A stretch of DNA of 64,000 nucleotides from Candidatus Woesearchaeota archaeon (GCA_046704725.1 JBJKRI010000005.1:32001-96000); one strand, 5' to 3'; counted from the first letter of the stretch, positions 1 through 40,679 are shown. Made by a program: numbers and translations. Notes: a model not told the origin generated them from the sequence alone.

Positions 1-2598
1 GGACCGTTCACAGACTATAATACGACGCACGCGTTCCCCGTGGCGATGCCCTACGGGACGGGCAGCCGCGTCGTGAACGTCTCGTGCATCAATCGCAACG
101 GCAAGGAATCGAACCGGAGCGTGACGATCACCGAGGACTATCCGAGCGCATTGAGCATCGTCGTCACGACCCCGCGCTTCATCGGCACGCCGCAAGTGCC
201 GTTGACCGTGCGAACGAGCATGCTCGCCGACTGCACCGCGACAGGAGCGGGCAAGACGGCGAAACTGTCTACGCTCGATGGCGTGTCGCATACCGGGACG
301 CTTCAGCTCCCCGACGGGACCACGAACGTCACGTACACGTGTACCGAACGAGACAAGAGCGCGCACCAGACAAGCGTGCAGCAGCCCGTGACGGTGGATA
401 CGACCGGACCCTCTGTCGTATTGAAGATGCCGGCGTACACCTGCGGATTCAACCAGTTGCTCGTGGCGGGAACCGTGACGGATAATAGCGGTGTTTCGAG
501 CGTGAACATCTCGTTGTTGGGGAAGACGTACACGACAACGTCACTGCCGTACACCATCAAGAACCTCAATCTCACGGAGAACAAGACCTACACCGTCTCG
601 GTGACCGCGACAGACAAGGCGGGCAATACCGCACCGGCGAGCACCGCGCAGGTCATGGGCAAGAACGCGTCGGACGGCGCGTGCGACACCACGCCACCCG
701 TCGTGCGGTTGAACCAGAAGGCCGGCAACGACGGGGTGCGGGTCTGGCTGAACTGCACGGACAACGTCGCGTGCGCCGACGCCTACGCGATGGGGGTCGG
801 AGCGCCCGACGGCGCATGCACGCTCACTGACGAGAAGTTCTCCGAGAACTATTCCGTGCTGCTCACGAACACGAGCAAGGTCTGTTGGCACGTCGAGGAT
901 GTGAACGGACAGGTCACCGAAGGGCACAAGGTCGTCGATGTGCAGCAGTATCCCGCGACGTGCACCGACGGCATCAAGGACGCGAACGAGACGGGTCTCG
1001 ACTGCGGCGGGCCGTGCGCTCCATGCGATTCAGGCAACCTCACCTGCAAGACCTCCGCTGACTGCGGCGTCGGCGGCATCTGCAGCTCAGGCACGTGCTA
1101 CCAAGCGCAGGTCACGTCATGCACGGCGGATGCGGACTGTGGAGCGGGATCGACGTGCGTGCAAGGGGAGTGCCGAGTGCCCGTGACAGGAAAACCGCCG
1201 GTCTGCACCTTCCCGAGCGACTGCAGCGCCAACGCGACGTGCGGGCAGAACGACACCTGCTACGTGCAGGGAGCGTCGAGCTGCTCGACCAGCAGTGATT
1301 GCGGCGCCGGAGAGTACTGTGTCTTCAGCCAGTGCAGCACCGTGACGCCGCCGATATCCGGCTGCACGAACGACAGCGCGTGCCCGCAAGGAGCGATCTG
1401 CAGCCAAGGCACGTGCTGGGCGCCCCATGTCACGAGCTGCGCCGCGGCCACCGACTGCGCCGCGGGAGGGGCATGTATGCAAGGGGCGTGCTACGCGGCA
1501 TCACAAGCCAGCGATACCTGCGTCACAGGGACGGATTGCGTCTCCGGCGTCTGCGACAGCACGACGAACACCTGCACGCAGAGCGGCTGCAACAACGGCA
1601 TCAAGGACGGGCAGGAGACCGCGGTGGACTGCGGCGGACCGTCGTGCGGCGCGTGCGGCGCGGGCAAGTCCTGCCTGGTGAACAGCGATTGCCAGAGCGC
1701 GAACTGCGTGCAGGGCGTCTGCCAAGCGCCGACCTGCACGGACGGCATCAAGAACCAGGACGAGACGGATATCGACTGCGGCGGAACAGTGTGCCAGCCG
1801 TGCAGCGAGGGATCGGCATGCCTGCAGAACAGCGACTGCGCGACGGACATCTGCAGCGGGACGACCTGCACGAACCAGACGCTCCAAGTGGACAACCCGT
1901 CGCAGCTCGGCAACGGATCGTCGTACAACTACCAGACGTCGCCCACATCAGGGCTCTCGTGGTTCGCCATCGTGCTCATCGTGATCGGCGTGCTGCTCAT
2001 GGGAAGCGGCGGCGGGTACATCTACTACGAACGCAACAGGGTGCACGCCCCGAGACGGACGACGGGACCGCCGGTGACCGGAGGCCGCAGCACAGGCGGG
2101 CAATCGAGCACGCTCACCCCCATCACGCCCAAAGAGGACTACGCGACGAGCAAGCTGCGCGAAGAGGCGCGCAAGCGTCGCCGATCCACGCGCGTCGCCG
2201 GACGCAAGGACCTGCTCAGCGCCTTCGACGAGGAGAAGGCAGAATCACAGGCGAAGACCGTGAAGAAGCCATCGAAGCCCGCGGTGAAGACCGCTCCGGA
2301 GAAGCCCGTCAAGAAAGCGGCGATCAAGGACCACACCGCTCCGGAGAAGCCCGTCGTGAAGCGCAAGGAGACGCCCAAAGAAGTCTTCGAGCGGCTCGAC
2401 AGCCTCGGACGGGACGTGCTGAAGAAGCGGTTCTCCGTGGCGAAGACCCCGGCTGCCATCCGGGACCTGGCGCGATCTCTCATGACGGAGGGCAGGGCGA
2501 AGCCGCACGCCGTGGACGCCGCGCTCGCCGACATGCACGCGAGCGGCCTGATGAGCGAGAAGGATCTCAACAAGCTGCGCGAGGACCTCGAGCTCTGA
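1..2598 (+). CDS. Large cysteine-rich, membrane-anchored surface protein (5' partial): Ig-like domains, Cys-rich repeats, C-terminal TM, basic cytoplasmic tail
   Basis: Frame open from position 1. Ig-like DTTGP/DTTPP boundaries; three CxDGIK(D/N)xxETxxDCGG-type repeats; many C-x5-C-x5-C-x4-C units; TM WFAIVLIVIGVLLMGSGGGYIYY; Lys-rich tail. Confidence 0.75.
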   Translation, partial: GPFTDYNTTHAFPVAMPYGTGSRVVNVSCINRNGKESNRSVTITEDYPSALSIVVTTPRFIGTPQVPLTVRTSMLADCTATGAGKTAKLSTLDGVSHTGTLQLPDGTTNVTYTCTERDKSAHQTSVQQPVTVDTTGPSVVLKMPAYTCGFNQLLVAGTVTDNSGVSSVNISLLGKTYTTTSLPYTIKNLNLTENKTYTVSVTATDKAGNTAPASTAQVMGKNASDGACDTTPPVVRLNQKAGNDGVRVWLNCTDNVACADAYAMGVGAPDGACTLTDEKFSENYSVLLTNTSKVCWHVEDVNGQVTEGHKVVDVQQYPATCTDGIKDANETGLDCGGPCAPCDSGNLTCKTSADCGVGGICSSGTCYQAQVTSCTADADCGAGSTCVQGECRVPVTGKPPVCTFPSDCSANATCGQNDTCYVQGASSCSTSSDCGAGEYCVFSQCSTVTPPISGCTNDSACPQGAICSQGTCWAPHVTSCAAATDCAAGGACMQGACYAASQASDTCVTGTDCVSGVCDSTTNTCTQSGCNNGIKDGQETAVDCGGPSCGACGAGKSCLVNSDCQSANCVQGVCQAPTCTDGIKNQDETDIDCGGTVCQPCSEGSACLQNSDCATDICSGTTCTNQTLQVDNPSQLGNGSSYNYQTSPTSGLSWFAIVLIVIGVLLMGSGGGYIYYERNRVHAPRRTTGPPVTGGRSTGGQSSTLTPITPKEDYATSKLREEARKRRRSTRVAGRKDLLSAFDEEKAESQAKTVKKPSKPAVKTAPEKPVKKAAIKDHTAPEKPVVKRKETPKEVFERLDSLGRDVLKKRFSVAKTPAAIRDLARSLMTEGRAKPHAVDAALADMHASGLMSEKDLNKLREDLEL

Positions 2599-2635: not shown

Positions 2636-3220
2636 ATGGGTCGTTCGCGCGCCGGACAATTGCTTGGTCAGATCGTGATCTTCGTAATCGGGTTGGTCGT
2701 GGTCGCTGCGGTACTGGCATACGGCTACATCGTATGGAACGATATCCTCGCGAAGCGTTGCGTGGTCGTCGGTGCGCAGTTCGGTACCGATCTCGCTCAG
2801 GCCATCGATACGAATCGTCAGTGGGGGACCTCGCATCCGGTGACCTTGTCCGCGCCGTGCCAGAGCGTGGATGTGTGCTTCATCGACCTACCCTTCATCG
2901 ACAGCTGGGCTACCGCCGGGACGCAGAGCGGAACTGCATTCCAGCCCTTCAGTTTCATCGGTGCAGGCGCTGTGCAGCCGACCTCTGCGCAGAGGTCCGT
3001 GATGGAGTCGAGTGTGCGGTCTGGAGACCTGACGAACGTCTTCACAATCCAGCAGGACGGCACCGTGCTGCCCGTGCAGAAATTCAACAGCAATCCAGCC
3101 ACGATCGCCGTCCGTAATCAGAACGATTCTGGAAGGGCTGTGTGCTACCCTGCTGTCGGTGGGCAGTTCACCGTGCGTATGGAAGGGAGGGGAGGGCTCG
3201 TCCAGGTCGGGACGCAGTGA
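2636..3220 (+). CDS. Type IV pilin-like protein (class III signal peptide), paralog A
   Basis: MGRSRAG/QLLGQIVIFVIGLVVVAAVL; ATG about 30 nt after a TTTCTTAAG TATA-like box; tandem paralog of next gene. Confidence 0.75.
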   Translation: MGRSRAGQLLGQIVIFVIGLVVVAAVLAYGYIVWNDILAKRCVVVGAQFGTDLAQAIDTNRQWGTSHPVTLSAPCQSVDVCFIDLPFIDSWATAGTQSGTAFQPFSFIGAGAVQPTSAQRSVMESSVRSGDLTNVFTIQQDGTVLPVQKFNSNPATIAVRNQNDSGRAVCYPAVGGQFTVRMEGRGGLVQVGTQ

Positions 3221-3277
3221 GAAGGACGGAGAACAGGAGGAACATTATTTAAAGGGCCTTCGCGGGTCAGAAGACAG

Positions 3278-3862
3278 GTGAGTCGCATGCGCAAGGGGCA
3301 ACTGCTCGGTCATATCGTCGTGTTCGTCATCGGACTGATCGTGGTCGCCGCAGTGCTCTACTTCGGTTATAGCGTCCTGCAGAACATGGGCGTCAAGCGC
3401 TGCGAGGTCGTGCGCGTGCAGTTCGGGACCGATCTCGCGCAGGCCATCGATACGAACCGCGAGTGGGGGACGTCGCATCCGGTGACGCTGTCCGCTCCGT
3501 GCCAGAGCGTCGATATATGCTTCATCGACCGGCCGCTCATCGACGATTGGGCGGCGAACGGCCACAAAGGGGGCTCGGGATTCACGCCGTTCAGCTTCGT
3601 CAGCGAAAAAGCAGTGCAGCCGACGGCGCCGCAGAGGAGCCTGATGGAGACGAGCGTGCAGTCGTTCGACCCGACGAACGTGTTCACCATCCAGCAGGAC
3701 GGCACCGTGCTGCCCGTGGAGAAGTTCAGCGACGTGTCAGCCGCCGTGACCGTGCATAATCCGAGCGATCCAGGGAAGGCGGTCTGCTATGCTGCCGTTG
3801 GAGGGCAGTTCACCGTGCGCATGGAAGGGCAGGGAGGTCTCGTGCAGGTGGGGACACAATGA
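3278..3862 (+). CDS. Type IV pilin-like protein, paralog B
   Basis: RMRKG/QLLGHIVVFVIGLIVV; near-identical to the upstream protein in several blocks. Confidence 0.75.
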   Translation: MSRMRKGQLLGHIVVFVIGLIVVAAVLYFGYSVLQNMGVKRCEVVRVQFGTDLAQAIDTNREWGTSHPVTLSAPCQSVDICFIDRPLIDDWAANGHKGGSGFTPFSFVSEKAVQPTAPQRSLMETSVQSFDPTNVFTIQQDGTVLPVEKFSDVSAAVTVHNPSDPGKAVCYAAVGGQFTVRMEGQGGLVQVGTQ

Positions 3863-4947
3863 GCAGGAAAGGCATCGGCACATTGTTCGTGTGGATATTC
3901 ATCGTCATCGTGGGCGGGCTAATACTGCTCATGTTCTTCCTCGTCGCGCAAGGCCAAGTGCAGGCGGGCAAGTCCAATCTCGATTTCGAGGCGCTCCAGC
4001 AAGTGACGACGATCATCGCGACGCAACAGACGAGCCCCGACACCTATGCGCAAGTGCCTATCCCGAACGACAAGATCACCTTGCAGTGCGAGCTCATACC
4101 GCCGAAGACGATCCTCTCGCAGATCAATATCGGCGGGCAAGGCCAGGACATGACGCATCTGCTGGTCGCAGGGCGCAATATCACCACCGGGCAGCTGGTA
4201 TTGTTCAACAAGGAGTTATGGTTGCCGTTCAGCGTGGGAAACGTCCTGTTCCTGACCGATGACAAGGAGATGCTCGTATTGCAGGACGCGGCGAACGTGC
4301 ACGACGCGAGCCAGGCGCTCATCGCCTTCAACGAAAGCATCCCGTCGGCCGTGGACCGGCGCGTGGATCCGACAGGTTCGGCCATACCGAACGCCGCGGA
4401 CTACCAGAACACGCGCGTCGTCTTGTTCGACCCGCCGCAGGACGTGAAGACGCTCTCGCAGTTCGACGTGCTCGACGGCGCGAAAGCGCAGCTCATGGTC
4501 GTGCGGCCGAGCACCACGGACTGGCGGCAAGCAGGAACCATCACCTTCTACAAGCCCGACCCGACACCCCCTCCGGGCACGCCCGACGCGGTCCTCCCCG
4601 TGAACCCGCCCATCCCGTACGTGGGAGAGACGATGCTGCTCGCGTTCATCTGGCAAGGCGACAGGGACAGCGCCTCATGCCTGCAAGCCAAGATCGCCGA
4701 TCGCATCTCATTGGAATCCACGCTGCAGATGGAGCGCTACGGCATTCTCTACCAGCAGGCCAAGAACGTGCAGGACACGGCGTGCTACGGCGCGTACACG
4801 ACCGGTGCGCTCAAGAACCTACGTGACGTGGGTGGCGACACCTCGAAATGGGCGGGAGCGAACGGCATAGCGGACGCCGTCAATCTTGTTGCTGCGCAGA
4901 ACCAGAACGTCCTGCGCGGCGGAGGGAGCTGTGCGACGATCTACTAA
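3859..4947 (+). CDS. Pilin-like (minor pilin) protein
   Basis: MSRKG/IGTLFVWIFIVIVGGLILLMFF; ATGA overlap with upstream stop. Confidence 0.7.
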   Translation: MSRKGIGTLFVWIFIVIVGGLILLMFFLVAQGQVQAGKSNLDFEALQQVTTIIATQQTSPDTYAQVPIPNDKITLQCELIPPKTILSQINIGGQGQDMTHLLVAGRNITTGQLVLFNKELWLPFSVGNVLFLTDDKEMLVLQDAANVHDASQALIAFNESIPSAVDRRVDPTGSAIPNAADYQNTRVVLFDPPQDVKTLSQFDVLDGAKAQLMVVRPSTTDWRQAGTITFYKPDPTPPPGTPDAVLPVNPPIPYVGETMLLAFIWQGDRDSASCLQAKIADRISLESTLQMERYGILYQQAKNVQDTACYGAYTTGALKNLRDVGGDTSKWAGANGIADAVNLVAAQNQNVLRGGGSCATIY

Positions 4948-5449
4948 GGGGCAGATGCAGGTCCTCGAGACATCGGCGGTCATCCTCGTCTTCGTCGTGC
5001 TCGTGATATTCGCCCTCGCGTGGTTCGCCAAGGCGAACCAGAGCTCATCGAGCTCGCAGCTCGACCAGAGCACAAGACTGGCGTTGCTGGCTACTGCGAA
5101 AGAAGTCATGAACATGCCCGAGCTGCGTTGCAGCATCGCCGGAAAGACGGACAGCACGTGCGTCGATTTGGACCGCGTGAAAGCGTTCCAACGATTGATC
5201 GCCAACGACCCCACGTTCGCCGCGCAGTACCAGGACCGTTTCGCCGGATACAACGTGTACCTACAACTCATCTACCCGCACAGCGAGGCGGTGAGCGGCG
5301 GGGCGACGAGCGTGACCGTCATGTCGTTCGGGCAGAGCACCCAGACCACGCGACGGGTGGCCATACCGGTCATCGCGTACGACCCAGTCACAGGAAAGCA
5401 CATCTTCAGCATGCTCGTGCTCGAGCAGCACACCGGAGGAACCGCATGA
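4931..5449 (+). CDS. Pilin-like protein
   Basis: GTG start after GGAGG; MRRSTKG/QMQVLETSAVILVFVVLVIF. Confidence 0.7.
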   Translation: MRRSTKGQMQVLETSAVILVFVVLVIFALAWFAKANQSSSSSQLDQSTRLALLATAKEVMNMPELRCSIAGKTDSTCVDLDRVKAFQRLIANDPTFAAQYQDRFAGYNVYLQLIYPHSEAVSGGATSVTVMSFGQSTQTTRRVAIPVIAYDPVTGKHIFSMLVLEQHTGGTA

Positions 5450-5964
5450 GCAAGGGGCAGTTCGAGATCATGGGCCTCGCGATCGTGGTGGTCATCATCA
5501 GCGTGGGCATCTTCTTCATGCTCTCCGTCTCGCTGCGTCCCCCCTCGGATCCCGTCTCGCAGGGCATCCACCAACAGTTCGCGCAGAACGTGGTGGACGC
5601 ATTGCTCAAGACAGACCTCGATGGCTGCCCGTACACCGTGCAGGACGCGATCGTCTGGAAAGCGACAGACTCCTACCCGTCCGTGCCGGGGAATCCGCGC
5701 TGCGCGACGCCCGCCGGCCTGGACGACATCATGGGCAACCTCACGCAGGCGATCACCATGTACAGCGGGATGACCTATCATATCGAGATCCGTTATCCCG
5801 CGTGCACCAGCGTGGACAGCAGCCAATGCACCGTCATCTATGAGAAGGACAACGGCTGCAACCCCCTCACGCAGCAGGCGGGACGCCCGGGGATACAGCC
5901 CATACCCACCTGGCCGAAGCCTGGACAGGCCCAGCTCGTGGTCTGGTTGTGCGAACCGCAGTAG
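5446..5964 (+). CDS. Pilin-like protein
   Basis: MSKG/QFEIMGLAIVVVIISVGIFF; ATGA coupling; GGAGG RBS. Confidence 0.72.
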   Translation: MSKGQFEIMGLAIVVVIISVGIFFMLSVSLRPPSDPVSQGIHQQFAQNVVDALLKTDLDGCPYTVQDAIVWKATDSYPSVPGNPRCATPAGLDDIMGNLTQAITMYSGMTYHIEIRYPACTSVDSSQCTVIYEKDNGCNPLTQQAGRPGIQPIPTWPKPGQAQLVVWLCEPQ

Positions 5965-5965
5965 G

Positions 5966-5995
5966 TTTAAATACGCCTTTCGGGAGTGGGAACGC
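5966..5995 (+). promoter_or_regulatory. Archaeal TATA promoter, leaderless transcript
   Basis: TTTAAATACGCCTTTCGGGAG; ATG 30 nt downstream; near-copy at 9851. Confidence 0.65.
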
Positions 5996-6103
5996 ATGGA
6001 CGAGATCGAGACCCGGACGCTCGTGAGCATCGTCTTCGTCATCATCATGATCGTCATCGTCATGGCGGTCCTGTTCGGGAAGCTCAAGGGGTTGCTCGGA
6101 TGA
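5996..6103 (+). CDS. 35-aa pilin-helix-only peptide
   Basis: MDEIETRTLVSIVFVIIMIVIVMAVLFGKLKGLLG; starts 30 nt after TTTAAATA; ATGA overlap with next gene. Confidence 0.6.
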   Translation: MDEIETRTLVSIVFVIIMIVIVMAVLFGKLKGLLG

Positions 6104-6963
6104 GACGCGGCCTCGAGCAGGCGACGGCGGTCGCGCTCGTCTTGTTCCTCGTCTTCGCCATCCTCCTCCTCGGCCTCGGGGCGGAGATCTGGAGCGGGCT
6201 GCGGAACGGGCTGGACATCCAATGCGCCCTCAGCTCGAGCCTGCGAAGCCTCGGCGGCAAGATCTCCATGCAGAACGCTTTCTCGCTGTCGTGCCCGCGA
6301 CGCTTCCTCGACGTCGGCAAGGACACCGTCAAGCTCTCGTACTTCGAGTGGGGGAAGGTCAAGGCCGGAGGGACGTACGCCTACCTCTTCACCGCGAAGG
6401 ACACGAAAGGGGATATCCACCTGCAGTCGAAGACGGCGCTCGACTCCAAGAGCTTCGCTACGGACTTCTCGCGCCTGGCGAGCTACGAGATGCAGCAGTG
6501 CTGGAAGGGATTCGGGAGCGGGAAATACGACGTGACCGGGAGCACGTCGATCTTCTCCGGAAACGCGTGCGTCATCTGCTCGGAGATCTACCTCGACAAG
6601 ACCAGCGGAGCGCCCACGACGACCGTGAACCTCCTAAACGACCTCAACACGATGCACGTGCCGTTCGCGGATTCGGCAGGGACGATGGGCGCGCAGACCT
6701 ACATGCAATACCTCTACGACCCATCGAACCCGTCCGACCCGACCACATGCCTGTCCAAGGACGATATCGACAAGCAGATGGGCGCGATACCGATCGCCTC
6801 CGGAAAGGACTACGCCGTCGTCTTGTACCGCAACGGAGGAAAACTGCAGAGCGCGGTAGGCGCGCCCGGCAAGCTCGTCGGTGCCGGCAATCCCTATTGC
6901 CAGGCGGTGGCGACCATCCCGATAGAACAAGTCTTCCAGGACTGCGACGCGGTCCTCAACTGA
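6100..6963 (+). CDS. Pilin-like protein with Cys pairs
   Basis: MRRG/LEQATAVALVLFLVFAILLL; CWKGFG and CVIC motifs. Confidence 0.7.
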   Translation: MRRGLEQATAVALVLFLVFAILLLGLGAEIWSGLRNGLDIQCALSSSLRSLGGKISMQNAFSLSCPRRFLDVGKDTVKLSYFEWGKVKAGGTYAYLFTAKDTKGDIHLQSKTALDSKSFATDFSRLASYEMQQCWKGFGSGKYDVTGSTSIFSGNACVICSEIYLDKTSGAPTTTVNLLNDLNTMHVPFADSAGTMGAQTYMQYLYDPSNPSDPTTCLSKDDIDKQMGAIPIASGKDYAVVLYRNGGKLQSAVGAPGKLVGAGNPYCQAVATIPIEQVFQDCDAVLN

Positions 6964-6967
6964 TACC

Positions 6968-7771
6968 ATGGCAGAACATCTCAACGCATTGGTCGTCGTC
7001 GTGCTCGCGGCGATACTTCTCCTGCTGCTGCTCGGCGTGTCGGGCATCATCGGCGGCATCGCGAAGTCGAGCGGCGACACGTCGTGCCCGACGAGCGTGG
7101 CCGAACGCGTGCAGGCGCTCTTCGTCACGGACAACGCCGAGCCGCTGCTCACCGGCTGCGACACGCGTACCGCGACGTTCACCAAGGACACGTCGGACGC
7201 GGCGATCGCGAGCCGTATCGCGACGGACTACAGCTGGTGCGCGAACAGCTTCAAGCCGGCGTGGACGCATCCGATCACGCGCAAGTCGAGCGTGTACTGC
7301 CACGTCTGCGCCTACTACACCTATTCCGGGTCGCCGCGTGCGGTGCCAGGAGTGCTGACAGCGCTCCTGGACAACGGTATCGCATCCGACGGAATCAATA
7401 TCACCGGTGTATCATCGCCAGATATCCTGAAGAAGCAGCCGATGCTGCTCGAGAAGAACCTGAGCATCGTCTTCTACCAAGAACGGCAGGACTCGTCGGT
7501 CCTCGGCCAATACTACAAGAAATGGCAGGGCGGCGCTGCCGGAGGGCTCCTCGGCTACGGAGGCGTGGAGCTCGTGGCAGTCGTCCTCCCCGCAATAGGG
7601 TCCTTGCCGGTCACCGCCACCGTGGCGGCGGTCGGCGCGGCGGGCGGCTACCTGTTCGGCGGCTACCTGTTCGACGGGAACACCGTTCACAGCGACATCA
7701 TTATAAGGCCTCTCGACAGTGACATGGTCAATGGCCTCGGCTGCACCACGACGGATGTCCGGCAACCGTAG
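6968..7771 (+). CDS. Pilin-like protein with internal Gly-rich hydrophobic segment
   Basis: N-terminal hydrophobic helix; CANSF/CHVC motifs parallel those of the 6100 gene; GGAAGGLLGYGG...AAVGAAGGYLFGG segment. Confidence 0.65.
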   Translation: MAEHLNALVVVVLAAILLLLLLGVSGIIGGIAKSSGDTSCPTSVAERVQALFVTDNAEPLLTGCDTRTATFTKDTSDAAIASRIATDYSWCANSFKPAWTHPITRKSSVYCHVCAYYTYSGSPRAVPGVLTALLDNGIASDGINITGVSSPDILKKQPMLLEKNLSIVFYQERQDSSVLGQYYKKWQGGAAGGLLGYGGVELVAVVLPAIGSLPVTATVAAVGAAGGYLFGGYLFDGNTVHSDIIIRPLDSDMVNGLGCTTTDVRQP

Positions 7772-7934
7772 GGGGATGGAGACGAGCACGCTCGTGCGGC
7801 TCATCATCCTCACCGTGTTCCTGCTCCTCGTGCTCGGGGCGATGATCGTCATCTGGAAGAACGCGCACGGCGCGTTCTCCGGGTCCAATAGCCTGTGCGC
7901 GAAGACGGGCGGGCTATTCGGGGGCTGCACATGA
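7755..7934 (+). CDS. Small pilin-like protein
   Basis: MSGNRRG/METSTLVRLIILTVFLLLVL; C-terminal Cys pair. Confidence 0.65.
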   Translation: MSGNRRGMETSTLVRLIILTVFLLLVLGAMIVIWKNAHGAFSGSNSLCAKTGGLFGGCT

Positions 7935-8092
7935 GGCGCGGCTCGATCGCTTTCGAGAAGCTCGTGAAATGGGTTCTCGGTGGATTGCTCGCAGTGGTCA
8001 TCCTGTATTTCCTGATCAACCAGTTCAGCCCCAACAAGCAGGGAGTCGTGCATCAGCTCATCGCGCTCCTGGGCCAGGCCAAGAGCCCCTAG
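7931..8092 (+). CDS. Small pilin-like protein
   Basis: MRRG/SIAFEKLVKWVLGGLLAVVILYF (Glu at +5); ATGA coupling. Confidence 0.65.
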   Translation: MRRGSIAFEKLVKWVLGGLLAVVILYFLINQFSPNKQGVVHQLIALLGQAKSP

Positions 8093-8129
8093 CGAAGCGT
8101 TTAAATAGTCTCCTCTCCGGGAGCACTCC

Positions 8130-8408
8130 ATGGAACGCCGCGCCCAGGGCATCTCGCTCAATGTCATCATCATCGCCGCGATATCGCTCGTGGTGCTCGT
8201 TATCCTCGTCGCCCTCGTCTTCAATTGGGGCGGGAACTTCAAGAACGGAACGACCAGTTGCGAAGCGCTCGGTACCAAGGGCGTGGATTATCAGTGCGTC
8301 AGCCCGAATATCGGTGAGCAGTGCCCGACCGGCTGGAAACCATTCGCTGGGCGCACGTGTGCCCAATCGACACCGGACAATCCAAAGACGTGCTGCATCC
8401 CGGTATGA
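8130..8408 (+). CDS. Small pilin with six-Cys head domain
   Basis: MERRA/QGISLNVIIIAAISLVVLVIL; six Cys ending in CC; 30 nt after TTTAAATA. Confidence 0.75.
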   Translation: MERRAQGISLNVIIIAAISLVVLVILVALVFNWGGNFKNGTTSCEALGTKGVDYQCVSPNIGEQCPTGWKPFAGRTCAQSTPDNPKTCCIPV

Positions 8409-8662
8409 GACGCGCGCAAGGACTCAGTCTGAATGTTGTCATCATCGCGGCGATAGCGCTGCTCGTCCTCGTGATACTCGCTGTCATCCTGTCGCGGAGC
8501 GGAGCGATATTCAGCAAACAGACCACCAACGGCTGTGTGGCGAACGGTGGAGAATGCGCAGCGCCGACGAGCCAGATCGCCACCGACCCCGCGAACTACG
8601 TCGCGCATCCAGAATTCACCTGCCCGACCGGACAGACCTGCTACGTGTACCAATATGGATAA
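8405..8662 (+). CDS. Small pilin with four-Cys head domain
   Basis: MRRA/QGLSLNVVIIAAIALLVLVIL; CVANGGEC...CPTGQTC. Confidence 0.75.
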   Translation: MRRAQGLSLNVVIIAAIALLVLVILAVILSRSGAIFSKQTTNGCVANGGECAAPTSQIATDPANYVAHPEFTCPTGQTCYVYQYG

Positions 8663-8897
8663 GGGACAGAACCTGTCGGTGAGCACGCTCGTTCTTGTCG
8701 CACTCGGCGTGCTTATCCTCGTCCTCGCCGCGCTGGCCATCAACAAGTACTGGGGCGGGTTCTCGAGCACCGCACAGGACTGCCATAACCAAGGCGGTAC
8801 CTGCACGCCGTCAGCGCAGTGCGCCAACAGCCAGGTGGATCAGCTCGCCACATGCCCGACGAAGGGAGACGTCTGTTGCGTCGGCACAAGCCCTTAA
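8655..8897 (+). CDS. Small pilin with beta-defensin-like six-Cys head
   Basis: MDKG/QNLSVSTLVLVALGVLILVL; C-x6-C-x5-C-x10-C-x6-CC. Confidence 0.72.
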   Translation: MDKGQNLSVSTLVLVALGVLILVLAALAINKYWGGFSSTAQDCHNQGGTCTPSAQCANSQVDQLATCPTKGDVCCVGTSP

Positions 8898-8922
8898 ATA
8901 GCAGGAATCCGGAGAGCGCAGC

Positions 8923-9141
8923 ATGAACTGGATCGTGGCGGCGGTCATCGCCCTCCTTCTCATCATCATCGGATTCGCGGTCATCCATCAGATACAGAAG
9001 GGGGCGAACGCGTTGCCGAACGCGGCCAGCGGCGTGCAGTGCCGGGTCACGGGCGGGACGTGCGCGACGAGCTGCACGGGCAGCGCGACGGTCGTCGCTG
9101 CGGACTGCGCTGGAGGGACGCAATGCTGCGTGGCCGGTTGA
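8923..9141 (+). CDS. Small membrane-anchored/pilin-like protein with beta-defensin-like six-Cys head
   Basis: MNWIVAAVIALLLIIIGF; C-x6-C-x3-C-x10-C-x5-CC; 30 nt after CTTAAATA. Confidence 0.7.
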   Translation: MNWIVAAVIALLLIIIGFAVIHQIQKGANALPNAASGVQCRVTGGTCATSCTGSATVVAADCAGGTQCCVAG

Positions 9142-9842
9142 ATGGACGTAAGGGACAGGACATCATGGGAGGGCGCATCATCCTCACGCTCCTGCTCACG
9201 ATAGCCACCATCGGTCTCGGGGTCGTCGTCATCGGCATACCGCTCTATCATTCGGTCTTCGGCACGGACACCATCGGCGTGCAACAGCTCGCGCAGCGCG
9301 CGGACTTCCTCGTCCACGGCGGGACGGCGGCGGCATTCGACGCGACCAAACAGGGGACGACGTACGCACGCACAGAATACCTGTTCAGCCCGAACAAGGA
9401 CGTGCTCTTGGTGGGCTTCGGGACGGGACAGAAGACCGTCGACGGCACGAGCAACGCCTTGTACGATCCGTCGCTGGTGCCGTACGGGATCATCCAACGT
9501 CCCGATTCGTGCGGCAAGCAGGCGTGCGTATGCCAGCTCACCTACAAGACGCATTCGCGGACGACCACGCGGAGCGGCTCGGGAGCGGGCAGCACCATCG
9601 AGGTGACAGGAACCTCGTGCTATCCTATCAAGGCGGATACGTTGGGCATCCTGCGGCTCGACAGCACGACGGCCGCGACCGCGGACCAGCACCTCGAGCA
9701 CATGATCATCCCCGTGTCGAAGGGGGACACGCAGTTGCTGGACATCGAGTACGACCCGAAACGCACGCCGCCGACGCTGCTCATCACGCCGCTTCCCGCC
9801 AAGGGAGGGAACTTCTGCTGGGCCTGCCCCAAGCAGCCCTGA
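9138..9842 (+). CDS. Pilin-like protein
   Basis: TTG start overlapping upstream stop; MNGRKG/QDIMGGRIILTLLLTIATIGLG; CGKQACVC motif. Confidence 0.65.
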   Translation: MNGRKGQDIMGGRIILTLLLTIATIGLGVVVIGIPLYHSVFGTDTIGVQQLAQRADFLVHGGTAAAFDATKQGTTYARTEYLFSPNKDVLLVGFGTGQKTVDGTSNALYDPSLVPYGIIQRPDSCGKQACVCQLTYKTHSRTTTRSGSGAGSTIEVTGTSCYPIKADTLGILRLDSTTAATADQHLEHMIIPVSKGDTQLLDIEYDPKRTPPTLLITPLPAKGGNFCWACPKQP

Positions 9843-9850
9843 AGGCCACA

Positions 9851-9879
9851 TTTAAATACGCATTTCGGGAGAGCGCGGC
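9851..9879 (+). promoter_or_regulatory. Archaeal TATA promoter, leaderless transcript
   Basis: TTTAAATACGCATTTCGGGAG; ATG 29 nt downstream. Confidence 0.65.
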
Positions 9880-10701
9880 ATGCGAAGAGGGGAGGTCTCC
9901 TGGCTCACCAACGTCCTCATGCAGGTCGTTCTCGCCACAGCGATCGTCGCGCTCTTCTGGTTCCCCTACCAGCAGGACGCCTTCAACGGGAAGCTCTACC
10001 AGGAGAAAGCCTACACGACGGACAACGCATTGCTCTTGAGCACGCTCCACGCCATCCCATCGGGGACGATGCGCGTGACCTACCTGCTCGACGACCCGTC
10101 ATACACGATCTGGCTCAGTCAAGGGACTGTGTTATTCACGCGCGGCGCCAGTGGGAGCAGCCCCACCAAAGGGATATTCGCGAAGGACCAGGACGTGCGC
10201 ATCTCCCCGTACACGTTCAGCCCGCAATACTTCCAGTATATCAAGACGCCGTCCGATCTCTCCGTACAGGTCGTCGCCCAGGCGGACCAGTGCGCGATGC
10301 CCGCGCAACCCGTGGACTGGAACGGCAAGACCGTCGCGTGGACGGGAGACGCCGAAGCCGCGCGCATCCTCGGCGACGGACTGTTCCGCGTGAGCCCGCA
10401 AGTCGTGAAGGCAAGCTCCAGCACTGCACCGGTGACGACGCTCGACTACACGATTGGGAAGCAATCGGGCTACATCATCGTGCACGGCACCGGCATGGCA
10501 TCCTCGGCTATCGCCTGCCTCGCCGACCAGGAATTCACCGACAGGGGATTGACGCCCGTGACGGTGCGCACGGACCCGACCGTGCAAGGGGTCACGCTCA
10601 GCGTCCCGAAGAGCCATGACACGAACACAGTACACGACGCCATGAGCTGCGCGTACAACCGATTCGTCGCGCCGGAGGTGGTCAAGCGTGGATGTCAGTA
10701 G
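9880..10701 (+). CDS. Pilin-like protein with C-terminal alpha/beta domain
   Basis: MRRG/EVSWLTNVLMQVVLATAIVALF; 29 nt after TTTAAATA. Confidence 0.7.
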   Translation: MRRGEVSWLTNVLMQVVLATAIVALFWFPYQQDAFNGKLYQEKAYTTDNALLLSTLHAIPSGTMRVTYLLDDPSYTIWLSQGTVLFTRGASGSSPTKGIFAKDQDVRISPYTFSPQYFQYIKTPSDLSVQVVAQADQCAMPAQPVDWNGKTVAWTGDAEAARILGDGLFRVSPQVVKASSSTAPVTTLDYTIGKQSGYIIVHGTGMASSAIACLADQEFTDRGLTPVTVRTDPTVQGVTLSVPKSHDTNTVHDAMSCAYNRFVAPEVVKRGCQ

Positions 10702-11140
10702 CTCGATACAATGGATCATCTACATCATGCTCGCGATCGCCGCCACCGTCGTGATCGTGCTCGCCGTCGGCTGGCTGATACCGAACATGGACAGTCCAGC
10801 CATGCGCGCGCAGATCGTCGCCGCGCGCGTCACCTACGGGGGCGGCTACATGCCGGAACCAGGGGTCGTGAACCTCGCCGACTTCAACCAGGCCGTGGCG
10901 GACCGGCACCTGCAGTACTCCGACAGCACGCTCTCGCCGTCCATCGGGGTGCGCGTGACCGTCACGGGAGCGAAGGATCCGATATACTACGACAAGAAGG
11001 CGTATGGCGTCGACAAGACATTCCTCTCCGAGCACGTCAACGGCATCGTGAACGACACCTGGGAACTGCCGGTCGTCGTGGACGACGGGAGGACGCAGAA
11101 GAAAGGAACCCTCCTGGTGGAGGTGCTCTATGCGTCGTAA
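10688..11140 (+). CDS. Pilin-like protein
   Basis: N-terminal helix IQWIIYIMLAIAATVVIVLAVGW; overlaps both neighbours. Confidence 0.65.
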   Translation: MDVSSSIQWIIYIMLAIAATVVIVLAVGWLIPNMDSPAMRAQIVAARVTYGGGYMPEPGVVNLADFNQAVADRHLQYSDSTLSPSIGVRVTVTGAKDPIYYDKKAYGVDKTFLSEHVNGIVNDTWELPVVVDDGRTQKKGTLLVEVLYAS

Positions 11141-11690
11141 GGGGCAGGTCGAGAGCCTGGGGACGATTTTCTGGGGGGCGCTCCTGCTCATCATCTGCCT
11201 GCTGTTCAGCATACTCTTCTGGGTGGTGAACGGGCATCTGCACGACGCGGCCTTCACCAAGGACCAGCGCGTGGACTGGGAGGCGGGATACCTCACGAGC
11301 AGCCTCGCGCGTTCTCTAGTGACTGTGGACGGCAAGACGGAGAGCTTCGCCACATACCTCGACACGCACCAGGGAACGCTGGACCAGAACCTCGTGCAAT
11401 CGCATCTGGACGCCTTCCGGGCATCCGTGCACATCCCTGAGAGGAAGGTGCTCCTCTTCGTGTCGGTCAAGAAGACCTACATCTCCTCCGTGGACGAAGG
11501 TTTCGACTCGTCGACAGAGAGCATCATCGCGTCGCTTGGGACCACGCAAGGAGAGAACACCCTCGCAGCGAACATGTACAACACCCCTGCGCAGTACGGC
11601 GACCTGTCCTTCGTGGAGCTGCCCGGAGGGATGGGGATCGGCGCGATAACCTCAGGCACGGACAAGCCAGTCACCGGAGGGCCCGCATGA
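11130..11690 (+). CDS. Pilin-like protein
   Basis: MRRKG/QVESLGTIFWGALLLIICLLF; GGAGGTG RBS. Confidence 0.7.
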   Translation: MRRKGQVESLGTIFWGALLLIICLLFSILFWVVNGHLHDAAFTKDQRVDWEAGYLTSSLARSLVTVDGKTESFATYLDTHQGTLDQNLVQSHLDAFRASVHIPERKVLLFVSVKKTYISSVDEGFDSSTESIIASLGTTQGENTLAANMYNTPAQYGDLSFVELPGGMGIGAITSGTDKPVTGGPA

Positions 11691-13978
11691 GACGCGGACA
11701 GATCTCCTATTTCCCCGTCGTCCTGACGATCGGCGTGACGATCATCTTCGCGCTCGTCCTGGGGCGCTTGCTCGTGGCGGGGCAATTCGACGGCCACCCC
11801 CCAGCCATCGGCGAGAAGCAGGAAGCGGTGCTGCGCGCCTATAGTCGAGCGGATGATATCCGGTTGTACGCTCAGCAGGCCGCGCGGGAGGCCGTGGCTG
11901 AGGCGGAGAAGAGCGGTGACTTCGCAACGCCCATCGCCCAGCGGGCGGCGACGCGTTTCACCGCCCTCATGCGGCAATATCCGTTCGCGAGCATCACTCA
12001 GATGTTCAACGCCAAGCAGGAAGGCGACAGGATCGTCTTCACCTCCGACCAGGATTTGTCAGTTCCCGTCGGCACCGCAGGTGCGGCGACCACCTCTGCG
12101 CCGTCCGGTGCGGGCGTCCTCACGGTCTGGCCGACCGACCATCACGTCATCACGAGCCTTTTCGGCTGGCGCAAGGCGCCGCAGGGAGGGAGCACGTACC
12201 ACCCGGCAATCGACATCCGCGGAGCGGTGGGAGACCCGGTGTACGCCGTGGCCGATGGGACGGCCATCGCAGAGAAGGCGAAGCACCTGCTCCAGCTCAC
12301 CTTGCCCGACGGCTGGACGTGCTGGTACCTCCACATCGACCCGACGGCGAACGGACCTGTCACCGCGGGGGAGAAGGTCGCGACCGTCGGGAACATCCCC
12401 GGCGTGGAGCACCACGTGGACCTGCGCTGCTTCAACGACGCCCTGCTCGGCCCCACACTCGCTGAGAATCTCTGGCCGAAAGACTACGTGAAGGACGGAG
12501 CTGCGACCGGCGACCTGCAATACGCCATCATCTACGACAAGCACGCCTTCGTGGACCCGTACTGCCTGTTTACGCCAGCGCTCCAGCAAGAGGCACTGCA
12601 GAGCGACCTGAAGGACCCGACGCTCGTGGCCGATACGACCGGCTTCACCAAACGGCCGGGCGGGGATGTCGCGACCAAGCTGCAGGACACCTGTCAAGCG
12701 TACGCGGCGCAGCACCTGCTGGCCGCCGCGCAGACGACGAGCGCTTCGACGTCGAGCCCTCCCGTGTCGAACACCGTGCTGCAGAAGACGCTCTCCAACC
12801 TCAAAGACCAACAGGAGCAGGGAAAGAGTCTGTACCAGTGGGTGCAGGATACCGCGAAGAGCGCAGGGGTCGACCCGAACCTTGTCATCGCGGTCATCGC
12901 GCAAGAGAGCCAGGGGGTGATCGACGCGCAAAGTAGGACCGGCGTGCAAGGAGTCATGCAGGTCACCTGTACCACCTTCCAGGACACGTTGCACGTATCG
13001 ACCTGCGACAAGCGCGCCGATCCCGTGCTCAGCATACAGGCGGGGACGTACTATCTCGCGGGCCTGTGGAAGAAGTACGACGGCTACACGCAGCAAGCGG
13101 CATTCACGGCCGCGAACTACAACGGCGGCGGGATGGTGCTGGTCGCCGTCAAGCGCGCAGGAAGCGACCCGTCCTATGACGCCGCGATGGCGCGGTTCAC
13201 CCCGCAGCTCCTCAGCGCAGCCCCCGGATACGCCGGCTGGACCCCGCAGCAGCTCGCCGCGAAAGTGAAGGAGACGACGGACTACGGGAGAAAGGTGTCC
13301 GGGTACTACGGCATGCTCGGCGGAGCGGTGGCTCCCGGCGGAACGAGCCGCACCGATATCGGGACGTACACCTTCGCGCTCATGGTGAGCGCCCCGATTG
13401 ACAAGAGCTACACCGACGTGCTCGACCTGCGAAGCACGCTCTCGAGCTGCGGGACCACCGGTTGCGTGACCCAAGCGTTGCAGCGCAGCGGCGCGACAGC
13501 GTGCTCCGACTACGCGTCAGAACTGCAACGCACCATCACCGAATGTCAGCAGGACCAGGACCAGCACGTCTGTGGCTGCCCGATACCCCTGCCGCCGCTG
13601 GGCGTCGACGCGAAAGTCACACCCGAATCGATACTCATCGGAAAGACCACGACGCCAGTGCAATGGATCGTGCCGCCGGGGGACGCCGTCATCCACGTGA
13701 CCTTCTCCTTGCCGGATACAAACGACCCGCTGCACCCGATCACAGGGGACACGCTCACGCTCTCGGGAACGACGGTCAGGCTCACGGACAGCGCAAACAC
13801 CATCCTGGGCGGCGCTTCCGGGACGCTCGGCACACAGGGCATTATCTACGCGACGAGGCAGCCCGACGGACAGACGCTGCGACTGACGAACACGACGGTC
13901 GGAGCGTGCTTCGCCGGCTATGCGAAAGCCTATTGCCTGGACGGTACGCGCTTCTGGGTGACACAGCAGGTGCCGTGA
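11687..13978 (+). CDS. Pilin-signal protein with M23 metallopeptidase and soluble lytic transglycosylase (SLT) domains
   Basis: MRRG/QISYFPVVLTIG; M23: ITSLFGWR...HPAID...PVYAVADG...YLH...HHVD; SLT: AVIAQES, GVMQV, GTYYL, ANYNGG, ETTDYGRKV. Confidence 0.85.
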   Translation: MRRGQISYFPVVLTIGVTIIFALVLGRLLVAGQFDGHPPAIGEKQEAVLRAYSRADDIRLYAQQAAREAVAEAEKSGDFATPIAQRAATRFTALMRQYPFASITQMFNAKQEGDRIVFTSDQDLSVPVGTAGAATTSAPSGAGVLTVWPTDHHVITSLFGWRKAPQGGSTYHPAIDIRGAVGDPVYAVADGTAIAEKAKHLLQLTLPDGWTCWYLHIDPTANGPVTAGEKVATVGNIPGVEHHVDLRCFNDALLGPTLAENLWPKDYVKDGAATGDLQYAIIYDKHAFVDPYCLFTPALQQEALQSDLKDPTLVADTTGFTKRPGGDVATKLQDTCQAYAAQHLLAAAQTTSASTSSPPVSNTVLQKTLSNLKDQQEQGKSLYQWVQDTAKSAGVDPNLVIAVIAQESQGVIDAQSRTGVQGVMQVTCTTFQDTLHVSTCDKRADPVLSIQAGTYYLAGLWKKYDGYTQQAAFTAANYNGGGMVLVAVKRAGSDPSYDAAMARFTPQLLSAAPGYAGWTPQQLAAKVKETTDYGRKVSGYYGMLGGAVAPGGTSRTDIGTYTFALMVSAPIDKSYTDVLDLRSTLSSCGTTGCVTQALQRSGATACSDYASELQRTITECQQDQDQHVCGCPIPLPPLGVDAKVTPESILIGKTTTPVQWIVPPGDAVIHVTFSLPDTNDPLHPITGDTLTLSGTTVRLTDSANTILGGASGTLGTQGIIYATRQPDGQTLRLTNTTVGACFAGYAKAYCLDGTRFWVTQQVP

Positions 13979-15854: not shown

Positions 15855-16094
15855 GTGGCAGAGCACGTATTCCTCGCGGTCATCCTCATCGCTATCGTCG
15901 CGGTCGTGGCGCTCGCGATCGCCGACACCTCGAACAGCGCGGGACAGGCCTACCAGGGGAACGTCGCCACGCAGCACTGCACGCCCACGCGCATGTGCGC
16001 GGGAAGCAAGCTCGAGATCATCAAGAGCGACTGCTCGGTGGAGGAGGCCTACTGCCAGAGCGGCTGCGACTCGGCGCGCGGCGTCTGCATGTGA
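15855..16094 (+). CDS. Small Cys-rich membrane/secreted protein
   Basis: N-terminal TM followed by several Cys (YCQSGCDSARGVC). Confidence 0.6.
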   Translation: MAEHVFLAVILIAIVAVVALAIADTSNSAGQAYQGNVATQHCTPTRMCAGSKLEIIKSDCSVEEAYCQSGCDSARGVCM

Positions 16095-40052: not shown

Positions 40053-40679
40053 ATGGAGTGCGAGGACATGCTCACCGTCTCGGAGATCATGTCGCGGGAT
40101 GTCCTGCTCGTCCCCGAGCGCACGCCGATCCAGCGGGCAGCGGCCTTGATGACGGAACGGCGCATCGGGAGCCTATTGGTGACGAGGAACGACCAGCCCG
40201 TCGGCATCGTGACCGAGCGTGACTTCACACGAGTGGTCGGACGGGCCATGGACTGGCGCGCGGCCGTCAGCGACATCATGAGCTCGCCGCTGTACTCGAC
40301 GCGACCGGACGCGGATATCATCGAGGTCGCGCACATCATGGCCGCGAACCACATCAAGAAGATGCCCGTCATCAATCAAGGGAAGATTGTGGGTATGGTG
40401 ACGCAGACCGACATCATCGCGCACCTGTTCACCACCATCGAGAGCCTCGAGAGCTCCTACGCCAAGGGAGAGATCGCCGGGAAGGACTTCGCGAGGAAAT
40501 TCACGAAGGTGTTCCGGGGCTACGAGCCCGCGGTCGAGGGCGTGACCAAGCACTGGCACATGCGCTGTCGGGCGTGCAACGCCTCGTTCACCGCGGAGGA
40601 GAAGGATGGCAGCGTGGACGAGCGCTGCCCGAAATGCGGCTCCACGGACGTCGAGTTCGACAAGCACCCGCCTATATGA
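40053..40679 (+). CDS. CBS-pair protein with C-terminal zinc ribbon
   Basis: VSEIMSR...GIVTERD...GMVTQTD; CRAC...CPKCGS. Confidence 0.85.
   Translation: MECEDMLTVSEIMSRDVLLVPERTPIQRAAALMTERRIGSLLVTRNDQPVGIVTERDFTRVVGRAMDWRAAVSDIMSSPLYSTRPDADIIEVAHIMAANHIKKMPVINQGKIVGMVTQTDIIAHLFTTIESLESSYAKGEIAGKDFARKFTKVFRGYEPAVEGVTKHWHMRCRACNASFTAEEKDGSVDERCPKCGSTDVEFDKHPPI

Follow-up and report, generated by a model that had tools for sequence, protein, structure and literature searches.

In the smallest Woesearchaeota and Pacearchaeota, Castelle et al. (2021; PMC8204110) describe large proteins of the murein-like lytic transglycosylase type (fam00969), for which attachment to bacterial walls was suggested, together with 51 co-occurring families, mostly of unknown function ("Module 98"). 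Predation was proposed from GH23 genes by Vigneron et al. (2022; PMC9723730), and passages of PMC12352652 and PMC11537232 repeat the idea. Here, a stretch of 64,000 nucleotides from a Candidatus Woesearchaeota archaeon (the window; G000:C5:32001-96000, contig C5 of the host genome G000) was analyzed, with emphasis on an operon of 19 pilin-like and associated genes, g01 to g19, at positions 2636-13978, the last of which encodes a murein hydrolase. Like the fam00969 proteins, g19 is a large extracellular SLT/GH23 protein from the same lineages, and in the available text of that work binding or degradation of walls was likewise proposed; by description it matches the numbered family. Unlike those proteins as described, the hydrolase here ends an ordered pilin-like operon, bears a class III leader and swaps its catalytic part. 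Module 98 may contain families of this operon. On balance, the evidence leans slightly towards a type IV filament or pseudopilus-like surface apparatus whose subunits would be processed and assembled so as to present a murein hydrolase to the walls of a bacterial partner.

The words pili, pilin and pilus are absent from the main texts of PMC8204110, PMC9723730 and PMC11537232, as are "pilin", "class III" and "type IV" from that of PMC12352652, while peptidoglycan, hydrolase and transglycosylase are absent from the main text of PMC13705601, a 2026 survey of archaeal type IV filaments. In the literature searched, no paper was found that joins a pilin-like operon with these hydrolases, supplements that possibly list the families not being covered.

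Gene order, class III leaders and the terminal hydrolase

The 19 open reading frames (ORFs) all lie on the plus strand, and their 18 junctions comprise 12 overlaps of 4-17 nucleotides and six gaps of 4-66 nucleotides; the overlaps at g04, g09, g15 and g17 hinge on the start codon chosen (GTG, TTG or ATG). The class III motif is defined by a FlaFind-type rule. A short basic leader ending in [KR][GA] and followed by about 20 hydrophobic residues, mostly with Gln first, is present in 15 of the 19 genes, namely g01-g05, g07, g09-g13, g15, g16, g18 and g19. A sequence-only reading of this DNA had described 19 consecutive same-strand genes, mostly translationally coupled, 15 with class III signals and four with a helix only, with M23 and SLT domains in the last gene. 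All of this was borne out: the counts of signals are identical and both domains exceed their Pfam cut-offs. From these sequences, the operon is taken to encode about 10 families of type IV pilin-like proteins and several small Cys-rich mini-pilins.

The leaders are concentrated in the cluster to a degree far beyond expectation. A strict pattern (Met, at most 10 residues, [KR][GA]Q, then at least 14 hydrophobic residues), applied to six-frame ORFs of the 1.18 Mb genome, is matched by 26 ORFs, nine of which are in this 11.3 kb against 0.16 expected (Poisson probability about 2e-13). A looser pattern is matched by 187 ORFs, with 13 in the cluster against 1.7 expected (about 3e-8). Strict matches outside the cluster include pilin genes beside both pilus ATPase loci (C4:131475-131014; C5:198933, 205856 and 206410); therefore, the pattern finds real class III proteins in this organism.

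The 19 proteins were compared with loci of relatives by tblastn, and a scan with the mini-pilin alignment, with one genome per species, yielded 61 loci. By tblastn, a collinear copy occurs in a same-genus genome (locus L032, g03 to g19) and another in a same-family genome (L034 plus L035), with partial copies in another family of the order (L039) and a second same-genus genome (L033). The 61 loci are titled Woesearchaeota, Nanoarchaeota, Nanobdellota, Nanoarchaeia, Nanobdellati, Pacearchaeota, "archaeon", "uncultured archaeon" or "uncultured Methanosarcinales archaeon". The last are titles of third-party assemblies and look mislabelled; L042 (G027:C1, CAZPJY010000001.1) is titled Methanosarcinales, yet is placed in the window's own order. 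Family order was obtained from iterated profiles of each window protein run over the loci, and reads A (g01 and g02), B, C, D, then a middle group of mini-pilins, E and F, then G, H, I and J. It is violated in none of the 61 loci and is complete in 30; A-B-C-D is found in 35 and G-H-(I or D-like)-J in 48, the loci short of full order being clipped at contig or locus ends. Conservation of the cluster together with its hydrolase gene, implied by the earlier proposal, was thereby confirmed, with a hydrolase domain in nine of nine terminal genes. Between D and G, two to seven mini-pilin-like ORFs are located (median four, 37 loci). The iterated profiles of g09-g14 drifted to any hydrophobic helix (about 250 matches each), and these genes were therefore pooled as "m", with no orthology implied within the pool; families E and F have more matches than there are loci and may be partly mixed. 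In seven loci (L040, L062, L066, L069, L070, L083 and L087) a D-like second gene occupies the family I position (G-H-D-J). Because it replaces I at the same place, I and D are suggested to be distant paralogues.

The cluster is followed by an RPA-like OB-fold gene identified by Pfam (14031-15086, same strand as g19), and J is succeeded by such a gene in at least 22 loci. Comparison of same-genus genomes gives identities of 20-44% for the cluster proteins and 62% for the adjoining RPA-like gene; this divergence fits a fast-evolving interaction surface. Of 401 genomes sampled from the order, 349 match the family C profile, which covers 230 of 258 genera; 11 of the 401 are flagged unpublished, all matched, and without them the count is 338 of 390. 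Among order genomes at least 90% complete and no more than 5% contaminated, 252 of 281 carry family C. In a sample of the phylum, the members of which all fell in the one class, the profile matched 22 of 28 genomes belonging to other orders and 87 of 93 belonging to the order itself. Exhaustive HMMER searching of 1.84 billion cluster representatives yielded 1370 family C members at E <= 0.001, of which 545 reach E <= 1e-30; the top 150 are mostly 150-190 amino acids (aa) long. In genome G003, mini-pilins stand at a contig end and the operon is probably just fragmented. Because order and neighbours are conserved, the operon is read as core chromosome, not a mobile element or chimera. Related loci with the same operon span 28% to 65% guanine-plus-cytosine (GC) content, the operon persisting across a wide range of composition.

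The leader itself is conserved in most families. With the motif in orthologues taken as [KR][GA] within 10 residues ahead of the helix, it is present in A 27/34, B 30/36, C 33/41, D 42/50, E 18/23, F 37/59, G 25/46, H 12/47, I 27/28 and J 36/50 sequences, and in 209/252 mini-pilins; for family C, a looser rule also admitting Ser gives 41/41. The counts for J and H indicate that the hydrolase usually bears the leader and that family H usually does not. Furthermore, Q8 and E13 are invariant in 41 of 41 family C sequences, and Q5, E7 and G10 in 44 of 44 of family D. If cleavage occurred after the G/A, the acidic residue would lie at +3 or +6 (families D and C), not at the bacterial +5; in the A2 alignment, the mini-pilins are without an acidic residue near the mature N terminus. 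A charged residue conserved inside the N-terminal helix is typical of assembling pilins and would be odd for a passive membrane anchor.

The terminal gene g19 (11687-13978, plus strand) represents family J and encodes 763 aa, with the leader RRG/Q, an N-terminal module, Peptidase_M23 and SLT domains assigned by Pfam, and a Cys-containing C-terminal region. Scores are 63.8 bits for the SLT domain (residues 387-483, PF01464; cut-off 21.3) and 30.9 bits for Peptidase_M23 (residues 171-237, PF01551; cut-off 28.7). In the former, QES...GVMQV...YNGG aligns to solved Slt structures through the E-S motif, the Glu of which is catalytic, and through the Y-N-G-G region; the domain also matches phage T7 gp16 in the PDB (E 4e-4). 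HxxxD and HxH are the metal/catalytic motifs of M23 enzymes, and the HxxxD of g19 with its next conserved His aligns to 9gy1, a solved M23 peptidase. Elsewhere in the host genome, SLT has one weak match (C5:1268-1453). Searching an index of 5.8 billion proteins with g19 returned itself and one protein 25% identical (M23, GH108 and PG_binding_3), and single-sequence phmmer with the g19 domains against the loci gave few matches.

Nine large terminal genes, taken from nine loci, all encode a murein-hydrolase domain that begins at about residue 200: Amidase_2 with SLT, SLT (two genes), M23 with 3D, Amidase_2, SLT with TPM (two genes), 3D, and M23 with SLT. A Pfam census of family J over 59 ORFs from 51 loci, many of the ORFs being clipped at locus ends, recorded SLT 15 times, M23 eight, Amidase_2 five, Glucosaminidase, VanY and Peptidase_M15 three each, GH108, PG_binding_3 and 3D two each, and M15_3, YkuD, NlpC/P60, M15_2 and M15_4 once each. 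Much the same domains, and one Muramidase in addition, were recorded in a wider collection of 61 large anchored ORFs. Family J is composed of a conserved N-terminal module and a catalytic part that is exchanged among at least 10 murein-hydrolase families. The glycan-cutting module differs within the genus, being SLT here and GH108 with PG_binding_3 in L032. A TPM_phosphatase domain lies 3' of SLT in the terminal hydrolases at L088:14212-17751 and L096:9717-13142, and TPM occurs in five of the 61 large anchored ORFs.

Structural models were calculated with AlphaFold2 for two of the 19 proteins, g04 and g03, from alignments of 41 and 40 orthologues. The family C protein g04 (4931-5449, plus strand; 172 aa, leader TKG/Q), in which the orthologue alignment displays an invariant Gln and Glu five residues apart, was modeled with a predicted local distance difference test score (pLDDT) of 91.8 and a predicted template modeling score (pTM) of 0.76, with a helix at 5-60 that leads into a beta head containing two short helices. 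For g03 (3859-4947, plus strand; 362 aa, leader RKG/I; family B, single copy per locus in 40 loci), a pLDDT of 89.8 and a pTM of 0.86 accompany a long N-terminal helix at 3-56, beta domains and a C-terminal helical bundle. As modeled, both have the pilin "lollipop" layout, a helix of about 55 residues carrying a beta head, which agrees well with the pilin-like character proposed in the sequence-only reading. The family D protein g05 (5446-5964, plus strand; 172 aa, leader SKG/Q-F-E from the orthologue alignment) is the predicted partner of g04. In the binding test, C residues 30-172 and D residues 28-172 were used, the first membrane helix segment being removed. The pair scored 0.75 (runs 0.76, 0.75 and 0.72) against 0.19 for the best of three controls, a mark attained by 58 of 80 solved complexes and by 2 of 110 mismatched pairs, although these counts apply only approximately, since own alignments were used. 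Runs agreed in at least 73% of contacts, with a partner pLDDT of 79 or more. The predicted interface places the C beta edge (142-148 and 156-161) against the lower helix of D (37-60), and the modeling supports mutual binding of the C and D heads.

Assembly machinery, proposed mechanism and alternative explanations

A T2SSE ATPase, a T2SSF platform and an A24 peptidase are all absent from the window, as had been stated beforehand for the assembly ATPase, TadC and prepilin peptidase; all are located elsewhere in the genome. The single A24 prepilin peptidase is at C7:28249-29112, and three strong T2SSE ATPases are present, each with T2SSF partners. The sets at C4 (131.5-135.2 kb) and C5 (202.2-205.8 kb) have two platform genes each and their own adjacent pilin genes, while the C7 set, near the A24 peptidase, has one platform gene of 555 aa and is read here as an archaellum. 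The archaellum-like locus, with its ATPase and single platform close to the sole A24 peptidase, spans C7:28249-37390; six ORFs with archaellin-like N termini were noted by eye (C6:170416-172334, C6:97819-96899, C4:71833-71249 and C5:160943-160365), and the host, with its small genome, may be motile. The A24 peptidase is found in 58 of 61 relatives, including one with a 0.6 Mb genome. A near-identical class III-like leader, R/K-G-Q-V-T-I/L-F-I-I, is carried by two larger proteins outside the operon (G000:C5:26045-27175, 376 aa, and G000:C7:76204-74189, 671 aa), which may be further substrates of the same peptidase. According to the available text of PMC13705601, ATPase and platform genes of Nanobdellati are adjacent and their pilins scattered, and two-platform "system 1" machines occur in this group; an operon unlinked to its machine fits such scattered pilins.

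Regarding the wall of the host itself, own murein was considered and rejected: no penicillin-binding transpeptidase match was found in the genome, in a search that did not include MurG, MraY or FtsW, and the one weak Mur_ligase_M match (35 bits) belongs to a family that scores in the M. jannaschii and H. volcanii controls as well. Because the host has no transpeptidase match and a merely weak Mur-ligase-like one, the hydrolase substrate is, on this genomic evidence, most likely foreign, i.e. bacterial. Pseudomurein is an unlikely substrate for these enzyme families.

On these grounds the following route may be envisaged. The A24 peptidase at C7:28249-29112 would cut the short basic leaders after G/A, and one of the two unlinked machines (C4 or C5) would lift the subunits from the membrane. 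The conserved mini-pilin helices would form the shaft of a filament or short pseudopilus, with the larger subunits (A-D and G-I) as a priming or tip complex. Subsequently, J would set its hydrolase domains on the bacterial sacculus at the contact site and open the murein locally, whereby the cell could attach, reach the bacterial membrane or set wall fragments free. The sequence-only reading had proposed a multi-subunit pilus or tip complex that binds and perforates bacterial walls, and it is partly supported. The analysis shows the signals and their conservation, a predicted pilin-like architecture with a predicted C-D contact, hydrolase domains and their exchange, and a peptidase with candidate machines in the genome; cleavage, assembly, the length of the filament and hence an extended pilus, the placement of J, perforation of living bacteria and the bacterial target as host or prey are what we infer. 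A wider proposal, tentative and given clearly less than even weight, is that a single type IV filament devoted to opening murein is retained by most Woesearchaeales and by many genomes elsewhere in the class; it would have a mini-pilin shaft, about eight accessory subunits and one exchangeable enzyme matched to the partner wall. If so, archaeon-on-bacterium episymbiosis or predation would be the default lifestyle of this large uncultured group, and the wall type of the host could be read from the type of hydrolase module.

Several observations weigh against the murein-opening filament. No Pfam or NCBIfam family exceeds its threshold for g01-g18, so that none of them matches a pilin family of either database; profiles of C, D and the mini-pilins against PDB sequences gave nothing below E 0.02 and no solved pilin; and Foldseek at E <= 0.001 returned nothing in the PDB for g03 and g04 and nothing in BFVD for g03, by which measure their heads are new folds. 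In g06, g08, g14 and g17, that is, family H and three other genes, the helix is without the leader motif. Regarding g19, the C-terminal HxH of the M23 domain is unaligned and reads E-H-H, which is non-canonical and renders M23 activity uncertain, and the second-best PDB match of this domain is DipM, which we take to be a non-catalytic LytM factor. Furthermore, G-H-P-P directly follows the transmembrane helix, which is broken there; therefore, g19 may be a plain membrane-anchored enzyme, not a filament subunit. Within about 10 kb of the mini-pilins, an ATPase, platform or peptidase was found in none of 65 loci (63 distinct). Finally, the same-genus genome G001 (99% complete, 10 contigs) is without C, D and J and has one weak mini-pilin-like match, indicating that the operon is dispensable, yet it has three strong T2SSE ATPases, as many as G000. 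With no co-loss in G001, the phyletic test for a dedicated ATPase failed and no machine can be named.

Part of this evidence would suit a bindosome-like display, in which a short pseudopilus or raft digests murein debris or dead walls for amino sugars and peptides, to the benefit of a cell poor in biosynthesis, and no living host is attacked. Such a display is the principal alternative, although we consider it rather unlikely. The bindosome provides a precedent, described in the available text of PMC13705601, for functional non-pilin proteins with class III signals on an unlinked type IV filament base, and murein-peptide-processing enzymes are mentioned for Pacearchaeota in the accessible part of PMC11537232; the signal on J in 36 of 50 orthologues, the lack of a linked ATPase in all 65 loci and the helix break directly after the transmembrane segment of g19 point the same way. 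However, at least 10 conserved structural families in strict order across the class go far beyond the needs of an anchor, and fast divergence with module swapping between close relatives looks like adaptation to partner walls, not to bulk debris. Moreover, no linked wall-fragment transporter turned up in the 61 loci, where no search was aimed at one. An unprocessed membrane-anchored envelope complex, with ordinary signal anchors (positive-inside), no type IV assembly and a role such as envelope maintenance or cell contact, would likewise accommodate the lack of any sequence or fold match to a pilin family, the lack of linked assembly machinery, and the four genes and family H without the motif. 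It is judged improbable: the [KR][GA]Q motif is strongly enriched and conserved, the invariant Glu and Gln inside the helix of families C and D are unexpected for a passive anchor, the models display one continuous helix of about 55 residues into the head, and the peptidase is near-universal in relatives, down to the 0.6 Mb genome.

Nucleic acid import by a competence-type pseudopilus, like the ComG system of Gram-positive bacteria, with the hydrolase helping to reach or free DNA from lysed bacteria, receives very little weight. Many minor-pilin-like genes in a row without a linked secretin are compatible with it, as are the OB-fold RPA-like gene that follows the operon and the nucleotide scavenging attributed to small genomes in the available text of PMC8204110; but murein hydrolysis is the only recognizable activity in the operon, the RPA-like gene, 62% identical within the genus, is read as an ordinary replication gene, no ComEA/ComEC-type channel was noticed in the cluster, and Pfam found no DNA-binding domain in g01-g19. 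Lastly, hardly any credence is given to foreign or artefactual DNA, be it a mobile element, part of a provirus or a bacterial chimera produced during assembly or binning. Domains such as M23 and SLT typically come from bacteria or phages, and two-domain wall hydrolases occur in phage tails and Gram-positive conjugation systems. Against such an origin, GC content is uniform, the same order and flanks recur in 61 loci of archaeal assemblies, family C is in 252 of 281 high-quality genomes of the order, and Foldseek gave no viral match (g03 against BFVD); the ORF tables contain no integrase or repeat boundaries, neither of which was the aim of a search. Mobile element and chimera were rejected on synteny and prevalence.

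Remaining subunits, flanking genes and host genome

All subunits described here are encoded on the plus strand. At the 5' end of the operon, the pilin-like g01 (2636-3220; 194 aa, leader RAG/Q by leader scan) and its paralogue g02 (3287-3862; 191 aa, leader RKG/Q by leader scan), 70% identical to each other, constitute family A, which an iterated profile detects in 38 loci. The Atlas look-alikes of g01 are Nanobdellota hypothetical proteins, and the nearest Atlas cluster with a Pfam family is PF04021 Class_IIIsignal (0.82), which is a lead only. Downstream of g05, the ORF table contains g06 (5996-6103), a 35 aa single-helix peptide without class III motif, for which no family was obtainable by iterated profile over the loci; ORFs similar in size and position occur in L032 and L034. 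It is followed by g07 (6100-6963; family E, 287 aa, leader RRG/L by leader scan and family profile) and g08 (6968-7771; family F, 267 aa, from the ORF table), which has an N-terminal helix without the motif and, near its C terminus, the Gly-rich hydrophobic hairpin segment that had been predicted for one gene.

The middle group consists of six short genes. By leader scan, g09 (7755-7934; 59 aa, RRG/M) and g10 (7931-8092; 53 aa, RRG/S) are mini-pilin-like with two Cys and no Cys, respectively. The next four, of 72-92 aa, carry small heads with four to six Cys: g11 (8130-8408; 92 aa, RRA/QGISLNVIII..., six Cys; mini-pilin alignment A2), g12 (8405-8662; 85 aa, RRA/Q, four Cys; mini-pilin alignment), g13 (8655-8897; 80 aa, DKG/Q, six Cys; leader scan and mini-pilin alignment) and g14 (8923-9141; 72 aa, helix only in the leader scan, six Cys). 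The g11-type N-terminal helix is strongly conserved over 61 loci. Defensin-like heads had been ascribed to four mini-pilins in the sequence-only reading; the small Cys-rich heads of g11-g14 are present, while homology to defensins is not supported, the Pfam matches being below threshold (AtDEF-like 17.9 bits against a cut-off of 25, Defensin_beta 14.4 against 21) and the mini-pilin A2 profile reaching gallinacin among PDB sequences at E 0.68.

Between this group and the hydrolase, g15 (9138-9842; 234 aa, RKG/Q by leader scan) has no family members by iterated search of the loci, its sole counterpart being a weak N-terminal tblastn match in L032. Family profiles define g16 (9880-10701; family G, 273 aa, RRG/E), g17 (10688-11140; family H, 150 aa, a signal-anchor helix without class III motif) and g18 (11130-11690; family I, 186 aa, RKG/Q). 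Family G is single copy per locus in 52 loci, and the Atlas look-alikes of g16 are Woesearchaeota hypothetical proteins; families H and I are present in 51 and 34 loci.

Upstream of the operon, positions 1-2598 (plus strand) encode the C-terminal 865 aa of a secreted surface protein of about 1470 aa, which starts at G000:C5:30186 with a Sec-type signal and contains, by Pfam, Ig-like domains and Cys-rich DUF7107/Dickkopf-like repeats, with a C-terminal transmembrane helix and a Lys-rich tail. In at least 14 related loci, tblastn places relatives of this protein just 5' of the cluster. The protein may be an adhesin conserved along with the operon, its membership of the system being uncertain. 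Just past the RPA-like gene, positions 15855-16094 encode 79 aa with an N-terminal helix and a Cys-rich tail, and a small ORF resembling it stands at the matching place in L032 (5546-5316). Further along the window, a 1096 aa ORF (40606-43896) contains an intein (Intein_splicing, residues 300-726) with a LAGLIDADG homing-endonuclease domain, and the 1459 aa product of positions 45555-49934, in which fn3, purple-acid-phosphatase N-terminal and CARDB domains were recognized, is probably one more large protein of the cell surface. No tRNA was found in the window by ARAGORN and no RNA family by Rfam.

The host genome of 1.18 Mb is in 8 contigs, is rated 99.7% complete and contains a full-length archaeal small-subunit rRNA gene (1425 bits). 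The host is a Woesearchaeota-type (Nanobdellota, DPANN) archaeon, and the DPANN assignment made beforehand is supported by that gene and by relatives titled Woesearchaeota or Nanobdellota. The GC content of the window is uniform (0.59-0.66) and, with the RPA-like flanking gene after the cluster in at least 22 loci, reveals no chimera in the contig.

Relation to known systems

Woesearchaeota and Pacearchaeota are among the most widespread uncultured archaea, and earlier genome papers guessed bacterial hosts from SLT proteins. The present analysis turns that loose hint into a defined apparatus with about 10 new protein families, a predicted subunit pair, a candidate peptidase and two candidate machines. 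It also offers handles for host finding in the mini-pilins, the sacculus specificity of the J modules and the comparison of module type with co-occurring bacteria, and hints at how this large archaeal group grips or feeds on bacteria.

Among archaeal filaments, "system 1" (Epd-like pili of methanogens), as described in the available text of PMC13705601, shares class III signals with Gln at +1 and an ATPase with two platform genes, as at C4 and C5, the pilins of Nanobdellati being scattered. The operon differs from it in that g01-g18 reach no pilin family threshold and in that a hydrolase terminates it. Its subunit families far outnumber those known from Epd loci. The Sulfolobales bindosome (Bas), in the same portion of PMC13705601, likewise comprises functional non-structural proteins with class III signals and an unlinked type IV filament base, and is the best precedent for an enzyme such as J with a pilin leader. 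By description, the two are unlike in cargo, which in the bindosome consists of sugar-binding proteins beside ABC transporters, and here of a murein hydrolase inside a pilin-like operon of about 19 genes. The latter would extend functionalized type IV filaments from substrate-binding proteins to a wall-degrading enzyme.

Similarities to bacterial systems are more distant. The GspH-I-J-K and FimU-PilVWX tip or priming complexes of type II secretion and type IV pili also have several pilin-like subunits in a row, often translationally coupled, and the predicted C-D head-to-helix contact resembles their packing. No relation in sequence or fold exists, however, and the host is an archaeon without outer membrane or secretin. 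We know of no enzyme subunit in those complexes and of no hydrolase subunit in the type IV pili of Saccharibacteria or other members of the candidate phyla radiation (CPR). Phage phi29 gp13, Gram-positive conjugation hydrolases such as PrgK, TraG and CwlT, and VirB1 resemble g19 in combining a glycan-strand cutter and a peptide cutter in one anchored protein for local opening of murein; unlike g19, they open the wall of the entered cell or of their own, whereas the producer here is without murein, and the carrier here is a pilin-like assembly, not a tail or a type IV secretion system. With the type IV pili of Saccharibacteria/CPR, the available portions of PMC9894109 and PMC11623550 suggest a common task, in that ultrasmall host-dependent cells use them to locate a bacterial host and keep hold of it; the pili there are bacterial, built of bacterial-type pilins, and their function has been shown by experiment, whereas that of the archaeal apparatus is predicted.

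Compared with these systems, what seems new is the operon with its strict order, its near-universality in the taxonomic order, the leader on the hydrolase, the module swapping, the two family models and the predicted C-D pair. The large SLT proteins of these archaea were known before, their place in a pilin operon seems new, and we classify the whole as a putative functionalized type IV filament system.

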